A stretch of DNA of 64,000 nucleotides, taken from NCBI RefSeq assembly GCF_013167455.1, contig NZ_CP038328.1. One strand, 5' to 3'. Source of the stretch: Escherichia coli O157:H7. GTDB lineage: Bacteria; Pseudomonadota; Gammaproteobacteria; Enterobacterales; Enterobacteriaceae. Positions 1 through 1,530 of this stretch are shown here, one piece after another. Under the pieces are notes generated by a model, which made no database searches, was not told where the DNA came from, and saw nothing but the letters and a program-made list of their open reading frames with translations. Numbering within the stretch: position 1 is the first letter of the stretch; the number at the start of each line of letters is the position of its first letter. Both the position numbers and the translations under genes were made by a program.

Positions 1-555
1 GATGATTACGACAGTGAGTTTCGCTATCACGGTAAGCCGTTACCGGCACTAAAAAGTCTCGACGCGCCGCAGCGGGTGATTTATGCCGGAACATTCAGCA
101 AAGCGCTATTTCCTGCATTGCGCTGTGCGTGGCTGGTGGTGCCGGTGGAGCAGATTTCGCAATTCCGGCAGCAGGCGTCACTGGAACCATGTGCTGTACC
201 CGTACTGTGGCAGAACACACTGGCAGATTTCATCCGTGAGGGGCATTTCTGGCGGCATCTGAAGAAAATGCGCCAGCATTATGCCCAGCGACGGCAGTGG
301 ATTGAGCAGGCACTTACGCAGCAGGGATTTCAGGTTGTGCCGCAAAAAGGCGGTATCCAGATGGTGATCAAACTAGCAGGTAATGACGTGACATTCGTGC
401 ATAAAGCCAATGCTGCTGGTCTTGCCGTACAGGCACTTAGCGACTGGCGTATCCGCTCAAGCGAGGACGGAGGATTATTGCTCTCGTTTACGAATATCGT
501 TAGCGAAAGTATGGCGCGACAGGTAGCACAGCAATTGCGCAGTGCTTTAAATTAA
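1..555 (+). CDS. MocR/GntR-family PLP-dependent regulator, C-terminal aminotransferase-like domain (5' end outside window)
   Basis: Reading frame open from nt 1 to the stop at 553-555; translation ...AGTFSKALFPALRCAWLVVP... resembles the PLP-lysine region of MocR-type regulators. Confidence 0.5.
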   Translation, partial: DDYDSEFRYHGKPLPALKSLDAPQRVIYAGTFSKALFPALRCAWLVVPVEQISQFRQQASLEPCAVPVLWQNTLADFIREGHFWRHLKKMRQHYAQRRQWIEQALTQQGFQVVPQKGGIQMVIKLAGNDVTFVHKANAAGLAVQALSDWRIRSSEDGGLLLSFTNIVSESMARQVAQQLRSALN

Positions 556-558
556 TAA

Positions 559-579
559 CCCCGAAGCCAGGCTTCGGGG
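559..579. terminator. GC-rich hairpin between convergent genes
   Basis: ccccgaagcc-a-ggcttcgggg inverted repeat directly after the upstream stop codon. Confidence 0.45.
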
Positions 580-704
580 TCCTATAAGACTGGTGACCAG
601 GGCAAAATCCCCTGATGCGCTATGTTTTTCAGGCCTGTAGGCGGACAAGGCGTTGACGCACTGAGTACTTTTCAGAAGTCAGACTACTGCTTGTCATCGT
701 CTCA

Positions 705-1046
705 CTACGATTTACGCATGCTCAACAACGCACCGATAAAAATACCTACCGCAGCAGCAGTTCCCACACTACACCAGGGTCTTTCACGAACAAAAGAATC
801 CGCGCAGCCTACGGCATCGCGCGCGGCTTGCTGGACGCGAGTACGACCATGCATTCGCGCCCTGGTTTCTTTCAGCAATGCCTGAGCTTTACTGCGTGCG
901 GCTTCAGCTTCCCCTTTGGCGTCGCTGCCCCAGGACTTCAATACAGATTCGAGGCTGTCAGCTAATTGATTGACATCATTCTGGATATCCTGCACGCCAT
1001 CATCAACGTCGTTGCGGTTCGGTCGGTTAAACATATGATCCCCCAT
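705..1046 (-). CDS. ygaM: DUF883/ElaB-family ribosome-associated membrane protein YgaM
   Basis: 113-aa ORF, coiled-coil N-terminus plus C-terminal TM helix; matches remembered K-12 YgaM and its position next to ygaC. Confidence 0.8.
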   Translation of the reverse strand: MGDHMFNRPNRNDVDDGVQDIQNDVNQLADSLESVLKSWGSDAKGEAEAARSKAQALLKETRARMHGRTRVQQAARDAVGCADSFVRERPWCSVGTAAAVGIFIGALLSMRKS

Positions 1047-1185
1047 TAGAATTCGATGTAATTTTCAGTGTAGACCATAATTTTCTTAACTGAGGTTCAT
1101 CGCGGCTTTATGGACTTTTCTGAAAGCGTTGTGAATGCGCAATCAGGTAAGGTAGGCCCGCGGTTGATAATAACGAGGATCAAAT

Positions 1186-1530
1186 ATGTATTTACGACCA
1201 GACGAGGTGGCGCGCGTACTTGAAAAAGTCGGTTTTACTGTCGATGTGGTAACCCAGAAAGCGTATGGTTACCGCCGTGGGGAAAATTATGTCTATGTTA
1301 ATCGCGAAGCGCGAATGGGACGTACCGCTCTGGTAATTCATCCAACATTAAAAGAACGCAGTTCGACACTGGCTGAACCCGCTTCCGATATTAAAACTTG
1401 CGATCATTACCAGCAATTTCCGCTCTATTTAGCAGGCGAGCGACACGAGCATTACGGTATCCCGCATGGCTTTAGTTCGCGTGTTGCGCTTGAACGTTAT
1501 TTGAATGGTTTATTTGGCGAAGCCAGTTAA
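1186..1530 (+). CDS. ygaC: Uncharacterised protein YgaC (DUF2002)
   Basis: 114-aa ORF in the K-12 gene order between ygaM and alaE. Confidence 0.75.

Follow-up and report, generated by a model that had tools for sequence, protein, structure and literature searches.

The gene that runs into the first position of the window (the whole 64,000-nucleotide stretch of Escherichia coli O157:H7 DNA analyzed here, contig NZ_CP038328.1) is best explained, with a probability of about 0.85, as an intact and vertically inherited MocR regulator gene belonging to an ancestral module, which would control a divergent AhpD-like gene and itself and which was probably lost by deletion in the lineage of K-12. A preliminary description of this DNA had proposed instead that the regulator gene was a strain-specific insertion at the window edge, in the space where K-12 has nrdH beside ygaM. 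A difference from K-12 is in itself no proof of insertion, and here K-12 appears to be the derived strain; the absence of the module from this laboratory strain may also explain why it has escaped study.

Frame 1 is open from the window edge through its TAA codon and encodes 184 residues that match Pfam Aminotran_1_2 (E = 1.2e-9). The first 1100 bases of the window are 100% identical to O157:H7 chromosomes, where the complete gene (1335 nt, 444 aa; L001:11221-12555) corresponds to RefSeq WP_001138451.1, whose record names the product "PLP-dependent aminotransferase family protein"; as had been supposed, the gene continues beyond the window edge. The full protein carries a GntR winged helix-turn-helix (wHTH) domain (PF00392, residues 4-66, E = 1.2e-16), encoded outside the window, and a C-terminal fold-type-I aminotransferase-like domain (PF00155, Aminotran_1_2, E = 2.7e-27). 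The window encodes only part of this effector domain, whose first residues, like the linker and the wHTH, are encoded upstream. The protein aligns nearly end to end with Bacillus clausii PdxR (7pq9, E = 3e-65) and Bacillus subtilis GabR (4n0b, E = 9e-59), and in the HMMER alignments its IIEDDYDSEF and FSK..P..R motifs align with those of both proteins; DDYDSEF begins at window position 1, upstream of the Lys294 codon. It shares with GabR and PdxR the two-domain architecture, the PLP lysine, DDYDSEF, and the phosphate-binding Arg motifs. The GntR wHTH, the aminotransferase-like domain, the PLP lysine, and the cofactor-binding motifs that mark the MocR/GabR subfamily were thus all found, and the two domains of the full protein bear out the earlier designation of the gene as MocR-type. 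The similarity to GabR and PdxR remains at the level of the family. Their partner genes are gabTD and pdxST, respectively, in contrast to the AhpD-like gene found here, and the operator sequence differs. The K-12 paralogues YjiR and YdcR, the latter of which we take to be the second MocR transcription factor of E. coli K-12, belong to the same subfamily but occupy other loci, have other predicted targets, and are distinct from the O157 gene. Two MocR transcription factors were counted in E. coli MG1655, of which YjiR (b4340) was named and given COG5457 as its predicted target (PMC5320631).

Table 1. Features of the regulator locus. Plain coordinates are those of the window; those preceded by L001 refer to the O157:H7 chromosomal locus.
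Feature	Position	Strand or orientation	Basis
MocR/GabR-type regulator gene, 3′ end (codons 261-444 and TAA at 553-555)	1..555	+	ORF and Pfam
Lys294 codon AAA, predicted PLP Schiff-base lysine, motif GTFSKALFPALR	100..102	+	HMMER alignment with 7pq9, 4n0b
G+C-rich stem-loop CCCCGAAGCCAGGCTTCGGGG	557..581	.	terminator scan and fold energy
109-bp spacer, O157-type allele only	582..690	.	haplotype comparison
ygaM, DUF883 / ElaB-YgaM-YqjD family, conserved right-hand border of the module	705..1034	-	
Three predicted operator boxes	L001:11175-11220		
Predicted operator box 1, ATGG core, ATGGACTGCT		forward	
Predicted operator box 2, ATGG core, AGAGAGCCAT		reverse	
Predicted operator box 3, ATGG core, AGCAGACCAT, abuts the regulator start codon		reverse	

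Upstream of the regulator, across an intergenic region of 87 bp (L001), lies a divergent gene for a 143-aa AhpD-like protein of the carboxymuconolactone decarboxylase (CMD) family (PF02627, E = 2.5e-21; TIGR00778, the AhpD core domain, above cut-off). This protein aligns over its full length with Pseudomonas aeruginosa PA0269 (2o4d/2ijc; E = 1e-30), an AhpD-like protein of solved structure that reduces H2O2 weakly and in a thiol-dependent manner (Clarke et al. 2011, PMC3141380). Its CxxC in INGCAFCLEMH, the downstream His, and an upstream Glu in MELIYLR preserve the Glu, Cys-x-x-Cys, and His of the proposed proton relay, whereas the relay residue Tyr50 of PA0269 is replaced by Phe51. The gene arrangement is also alike, PA0269 adjoining the MocR regulator PA0268 in P. 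aeruginosa as the AhpD-like gene adjoins the regulator here. The AhpD-like gene ends in its own terminator, a hairpin with a T-run (−16.9 kcal/mol), and nrdH follows 208 bp beyond it on the same strand, succeeded by nrdI, nrdE, and nrdF (L001). In a separate context, a study with a salicylidene acylhydrazide probe named "z3974" among the O157 proteins that the probe pulled down (PMC3191033); we do not equate it with the AhpD-like gene described here.

We aligned the divergent intergenic regions of 21 species and found one block with fixed spacing, TA.CACTAT.ATGG.CT....GA.AGCCATA...T....AAAAA.CAGACCAT, while its surroundings drift. Box 1 of this predicted operator overlaps a −10-like element, CACTATAAT, and boxes 1 and 3 form a 10-bp inverted repeat in which 9 of the 10 positions are complementary in O157. 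The two-box pattern had a single match in the 25-kb locus, which was the operator itself and not a site near nrdH, and no match in the 64-kb window. Related three-box layouts were seen upstream of homologues in Burkholderiales and Pseudomonas. The MocR subfamily typically has TGG-containing repeats in mixed orientation (PMC5320631), and the operators described for GabR and PdxR, several short repeats in mixed orientation, have a layout like that of the predicted operator. A CMD gene was present within 5 kb of the regulator homologue in 61 of 79 loci and within 300 bp in 43, and was divergent in 34. A conserved divergent block combined with CMD linkage is the pattern expected of a MocR protein that regulates its neighbor and itself, and the regulator likely controls both the divergent AhpD-like gene and its own gene. 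We infer DNA binding by this protein, as well as the target, sign, and ligand of the regulation. In the proposed mechanism, a regulator dimer would bind the three ATGG-core boxes of the 87-bp divergent region (ATGGnCTG-N5-GAnAGCCAT-N20-CAGACCAT), a putative operator that overlaps both the −10 element and the regulator start codon, and would in this way govern the AhpD-like gene together with autoregulation. By analogy with GabR, the signal may be a ligand with an amine group that would form an external aldimine with the bound PLP. It is conceivable, albeit rather doubtful, that the MocR/AhpD-like pair serves as a PLP-based sensor-effector for a reactive oxidant or electrophile, overlooked because K-12 deleted it. 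Its presence in the O157:H7, 536, 042, ATCC 25922, and Nissle-derived genomes and in Salmonella, and its loss or decay elsewhere by the K-12-type deletion or by a 589-bp internal deletion, would then reflect niche-specific selection, possibly coupled to nrdHIEF expression.

Another reading, which we consider unlikely, is that the module mainly modulates the adjacent nrdHIEF genes (the alternative ribonucleotide reductase and the NrdH redoxin), either by read-through from the AhpD-like gene or via regulator sites near nrdH. The close, same-strand position of the AhpD-like gene upstream of nrdH is kept in many genera, the AhpD-like protein and NrdH are both thiol-redox proteins, and 45 bp by the nrdH control region differ between chromosomes with and without the module. 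Against this stand the terminator of the AhpD-like gene and the single occurrence of the two-box operator in the 25-kb locus, away from nrdH. In addition, the pairing of MocR and CMD genes persists without nrd genes in Pseudomonas and Burkholderiales, and in Kluyvera genomosp. 1 (L007) and Klebsiella sp. BIGb0407 (L019) the pair adjoins proV, again without nrd genes.

The pairing of MocR with COG2128 and the corresponding regulog were already predicted in 2016, and the regulator gene was already annotated; here we document the domain architecture and gene order of the module, how widely it occurs, the scars of its deletion, the purifying selection on its genes, and the conservation of its predicted operator. 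Suvorova and Rodionov (2016, Microb Genom 2:e000047, supplement, PMC5320631) defined a MocR group, "Spro_3719 - Enterobacteriales," with COG2128 as the sole content of its predicted regulon and with members that include STM2803, a Klebsiella pneumoniae MGH 78578 protein (printed KPM_03002), CKO_04020 of Citrobacter koseri, ECA2654 of Pectobacterium, and proteins of Enterobacter 638 and Serratia. A "PA0268" group from Pseudomonas, Burkholderia, and Ralstonia likewise has a COG2128 regulon, and COG2128 was counted in 53 predicted MocR regulons (PMC5320631). The module described here has the same divergent pair of MocR and COG2128/PF02627 genes as the Spro_3719 and PA0268 regulogs, with repeats of the same ATGG/TGG core. 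The E. coli copy is missing from the published list because K-12, which does not have the gene, was the only E. coli in that survey (PMC5320631). Our literature search found no paper that joins MocR with AhpD or carboxymuconolactone decarboxylase, and no experimental study. Salmonella LT2 would also have the module (STM2803), as judged from locus tags and synteny in published papers rather than from sequence comparison; STM2804 has been placed some 5 kb away from stpA in that strain (PMC3723669).

Newer PGAP annotation makes the protein PdxR, the PLP-responsive activator of PLP biosynthesis, and some RefSeq records name the gene pdxR. This name arises because the protein passes the NCBIfam PdxR model (NF052282, an equivalog model; 415.9 bits against a cut-off of 320), and its best solved relative is indeed B. 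clausii PdxR. We scored five homologues that are 39%-77% identical to the O157 protein (from Pseudomonas, Massilia, Rahnella, Citrobacter, and a Bacteriovorax MAG) on the same model and obtained 407-424 bits, and for 2 of these 5 the rhizopine MocR model gave an equal or better score, indicating that the NF052282 score is generic to the family. The partner gene is AhpD-like and not pdxST or pdxK, and the annotation of the 25-kb locus contains no pdx gene. Moreover, E. coli makes PLP via the DXP-dependent PdxA/PdxJ route. In the published classification the Spro_3719 group is set apart from the PdxR groups (PMC5320631). A PdxR function thus appears quite improbable, and the name, which is spreading automatically in RefSeq, looks like an over-call and is probably wrong, the genomic context indicating an AhpD-like target. 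We file the product of window positions 1-555 as a predicted MocR-subfamily transcription factor of the Spro_3719/PA0268 kind rather than as PdxR. That the gene encodes a working aminotransferase instead of a regulator, as its RefSeq name might imply, is very unlikely: although the window fragment alone matches just the aminotransferase fold and the PLP-binding residues are intact, the full protein has the N-terminal GntR wHTH and matches the regulators PdxR and GabR along nearly its whole length, a conserved predicted operator stands in the gene's promoter, and transaminase activity is, to our knowledge, low or absent in GabR-type domains.

To place the module in a wider context, we scanned one genome per species for relatives and recovered the neighboring genes by tblastn with the O157 proteins. 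Among the matches listed, regulator identity was 90% in Escherichia albertii, 75%-77% in Citrobacter, and 61%-70% in Kluyvera, Pseudocitrobacter, Pseudescherichia, Cedecea, Shimwellia, and Pluralibacter, as well as in Enterobacter, Klebsiella, and Enterobacteriaceae isolates; the remaining relatives listed were below 50%, including Rahnella at 47%. The order and orientation nrdE-nrdI-nrdH-CMD-MocR-ygaM-ygaC-alaE were recovered in nearly all loci with at least 61% identity and in Rahnella, and synteny around the module extends from E. albertii to no fewer than 10 further enterobacterial genera, with the Citrobacter module locus lacking ygaM. The identities of MocR and NrdE fall together (90/97%, 75-77/90-91%, 66-68/87%, 62-64/82-85%, and 47/74%). 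These comparisons suggest that the module is ancestral in Enterobacteriaceae and was inherited vertically between nrdH and ygaM.

We then surveyed 5426 complete E. coli genomes for the module and for the empty junction. The regulator and AhpD-like genes were present in 1387 of them, always as a single chromosomal copy, and the K-12-type empty junction was found in 4033, so that the species divides cleanly into two states. This wide occurrence does not fit the idea that the gene is specific to a strain, while neither K-12 nor most of the species (74% of the genomes) has it. Among the carriers are O157:H7, O145:NM, 536, 042, ATCC 25922, and a Nissle derivative, and among the genomes that lack the module are K-12 derivatives, NEBExpress, O104:H4 C227-11, and O121:H19. 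In terms of the phylogroups to which we presume these strains belong, E, B2, and D have the module, and A and B1 lack it. In the K-12 derivative Stbl4, nrdH and ygaM are separated by a 247-bp spacer without the regulator gene, confirming the K-12 gene order that the preliminary description had given. Two intact allele types were found among the carriers. An O157-type allele (identity of 95% or more to the O157 module) occurs in 364 genomes, 358 of them at 99% identity or more, and a second type, about 91.7% identical to the O157 module, occurs in 1023. In about 111 of these 1023 genomes, a 589-bp internal deletion between CCAT.ATG microhomologies takes out the start codon and the DNA-binding domain.

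The structure of the empty site bears directly on how it arose. The site aligns to the joined flanks of the module, and the nrdH control region is identical to that of occupied haplotypes. On one side it retains the ACGGGGTAGGGGATTTTGTG stretch that stands before the CMD terminator, followed by the left arm of this terminator in degenerate form (CACCAGGCAA versus GCCGGGCAA); on the other it retains the final bases ahead of the MocR stop (AAA right before the shared hairpin) and the hairpin itself. Because both module ends have left remnants in the empty site, a deletion of about 1.9 kb is indicated. On this sequence comparison, the K-12 state is the derived one, brought about by a probable deletion of this size in the E. 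coli lineage to which K-12 belongs, and O157 would have gained nothing. A single such event may have begun at the CMD terminator and ended in the final codons of the regulator gene, sparing the nrdH control region and the ygaM terminator. The 3′ flank of the empty site has the form seen in B2 strains and E. albertii. Just past the nrdH control region, a 45-bp stretch differs between empty and occupied haplotypes at about half of its positions, while occupied E. coli and E. albertii agree across it, suggesting that the loss was not a clean single step from a present-day occupied allele, or that the empty allele entered by import from some divergent lineage.

The proposal of a strain- or lineage-specific insertion, that is, a horizontally acquired islet in the ygaM-nrdH spacer of O157:H7, has very little left in its favor. 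It could draw on the absence of the genes from K-12 and from most complete E. coli genomes, on the break of K-12 homology exactly at the ygaM stop codon, and on the 8%-10% divergence of the O157 allele from the B2 allele. It is contradicted by the shared position and orientation in more than 10 genera with a divergence that tracks the species tree, and by the remnants of both module ends in the empty site. The G+C content of the module is native (52.5% compared to 51.4% in the flanks), and the annotation of the 25-kb locus revealed no integrase, tRNA, repeats, or mobility genes around the module. The native composition, the absence of mobility genes, and the syntenic position are not those of a horizontally acquired islet. 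Furthermore, the end of megablast homology to K-12 at about window position 703, by the ygaM stop codon, does not mark an insertion boundary. It arises because the O157-type allele has its own 109-bp REP-like spacer, separate from the module. Vertical inheritance followed by deletion in the K-12 lineage is the reading that we retain for the gene.

The preliminary description had assigned positions 1-705 to the regulator feature; its coding part (1-555) stands, but positions 556-705 are noncoding and consist mainly of the hairpin and the REP-like spacer (Table 1). The regulator gene is convergent with ygaM, as had been noted. The stem-loop, located 3 nt past the MocR stop codons, has folding energies of −20.7 and −22.5 kcal/mol (z = −4.0 and −3.6), is conserved in 536, E. 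albertii, and K-12, and persists in K-12-type empty sites. It is most likely the ygaM terminator, because a T-rich tail follows it on the minus (ygaM) strand only. The 109-bp spacer stands in for 16 bp (AAAGACGCGTATTTAT) of the B2, E. albertii, and K-12 haplotypes and holds degenerate REP/BIME-like sequence, with positions 585-636 being 83% identical to the REP of the ridA-mgtA spacer; at full length it occurs in 364 genomes only, which are those of the O157-type allele class. We also considered an inverted-repeat or inversion model of the junctions, since short-word BLAST matched the K-12 spacer to window positions 558-612 in reverse (E = 2e-5). This match was taken as coincidence, as most of its score came from the palindromic hairpin and the CAAAATCCCC arm is a REP-like context also present in the ridA-mgtA spacer. 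No Rfam family matched window positions 1-1300 at E ≤ 1, and a sigma-70 consensus scan of positions 1-1250 returned no promoter-like sites, an expected result because the module promoters lie upstream of the window.

Finally, we compared the alleles for signs of selection and exchange. Full-length copies of the regulator and of the AhpD-like gene are present in E. coli, E. albertii, and Citrobacter, and the dN/dS values between the O157 and 536 alleles (regulator, 0.10; AhpD-like gene, 0.07) denote purifying selection. Synonymous divergence between the O157 and B2 alleles reached 0.41 in the regulator and 0.31 in ygaM, compared to 0.09-0.14 in the AhpD-like gene, nrdH, nrdI, and ygaC. It is therefore about 3- to 4-fold that of the neighboring genes, climbing most at the 3′ end of the regulator, inside the window. 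The raised dS of both genes suggests past recombination across the regulator-ygaM segment.

Comparison of K-12-type empty and occupied haplotypes revealed that the module, composed of the MocR-type regulator gene and its divergent AhpD-like neighbour, is not the only difference between them. Approximately 45 bp that follow CACACAA, immediately past the nrdH control region (itself conserved), differ at about half of the positions between the 2 haplotypes, while over the same stretch the occupied E. coli strains O157 and 536 and also E. albertii agree with one another. This mismatch suggests that the empty allele did not arise by simple deletion from a present-day occupied allele, or else that a divergent lineage was its source. 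A 589-bp internal deletion, carried by E. coli strain 4750 as well as some 110 further genomes and with CCAT.ATG microhomologies at its endpoints, removes the start codon and the wHTH domain of the regulator and leaves the AhpD-like gene whole. This deletion is an independent second path to regulator loss in E. coli.

Coordinates of the features at and near the regulator locus (L001, 25-kb locus of an identical O157:H7 chromosome; L002, its K-12-type empty counterpart; L083, strain 4750)
Feature	Coordinates	Remark
Divergent stretch, ~45 bp	L001:10603-10647 vs L002:5866-5908	slightly beyond the left edge of the window, upstream of nrdH
Locus with the 589-bp internal deletion	L083:2052-2807	
Probable recombination patch	window 1-1034	3′ part of the regulator gene, plus ygaM
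O157-type spacer, 109 bp	window 582-690	in place of 16 bp of ancestral spacer
REP-matching segment	window 585-636	within the 109-bp spacer
Pseudogene	window 12531-13100 and beyond (L001:24531-25100)	internal stop

When the O157 and 536 alleles were compared, the regulator and ygaM had synonymous divergences of 0.41 and 0.31, respectively, compared to 0.09 to 0.14 for the AhpD-like gene, nrdH, nrdI, and ygaC, and 0.01 for alaE. The last of the nine 150-nt windows compared, close to the regulator gene's 3′ end, showed only 79% identity. This region is probably a recombination patch. The spacer between the two genes is confined to the O157-type allele (364 genomes) and lengthens the ygaM 3′ untranslated region ahead of the terminator hairpin. 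It contains degenerate REP/BIME-like sequence, with 83% identity to the REP of the ridA-mgtA spacer.

Newer PGAP runs name the regulator [quoted passage not shown] (RefSeq, e.g., NZ_CP104645.1). This name looks like an over-call, because the NCBIfam PdxR model (cut-off 320 bits) scores distant CMD-linked homologues equally, at 407 to 424 bits. In EDL933 numbering, the AhpD-like neighbour may be z3974. A salicylidene acylhydrazide affinity probe captured 16 proteins, including O157 z3974, which showed no binding in Far Western blots (Wang et al. 2011, PMC3191033).

Downstream of glaH (csiD) lies a pseudogene annotated in RefSeq as "alpha amylase C-terminal domain-containing protein". The G+C content is 46.1% for the entire 64-kb window versus 51.4% for L001, which overlaps its first 13.1 kb, so low-G+C DNA must make up much of the remainder, perhaps as O157 islands or prophage.
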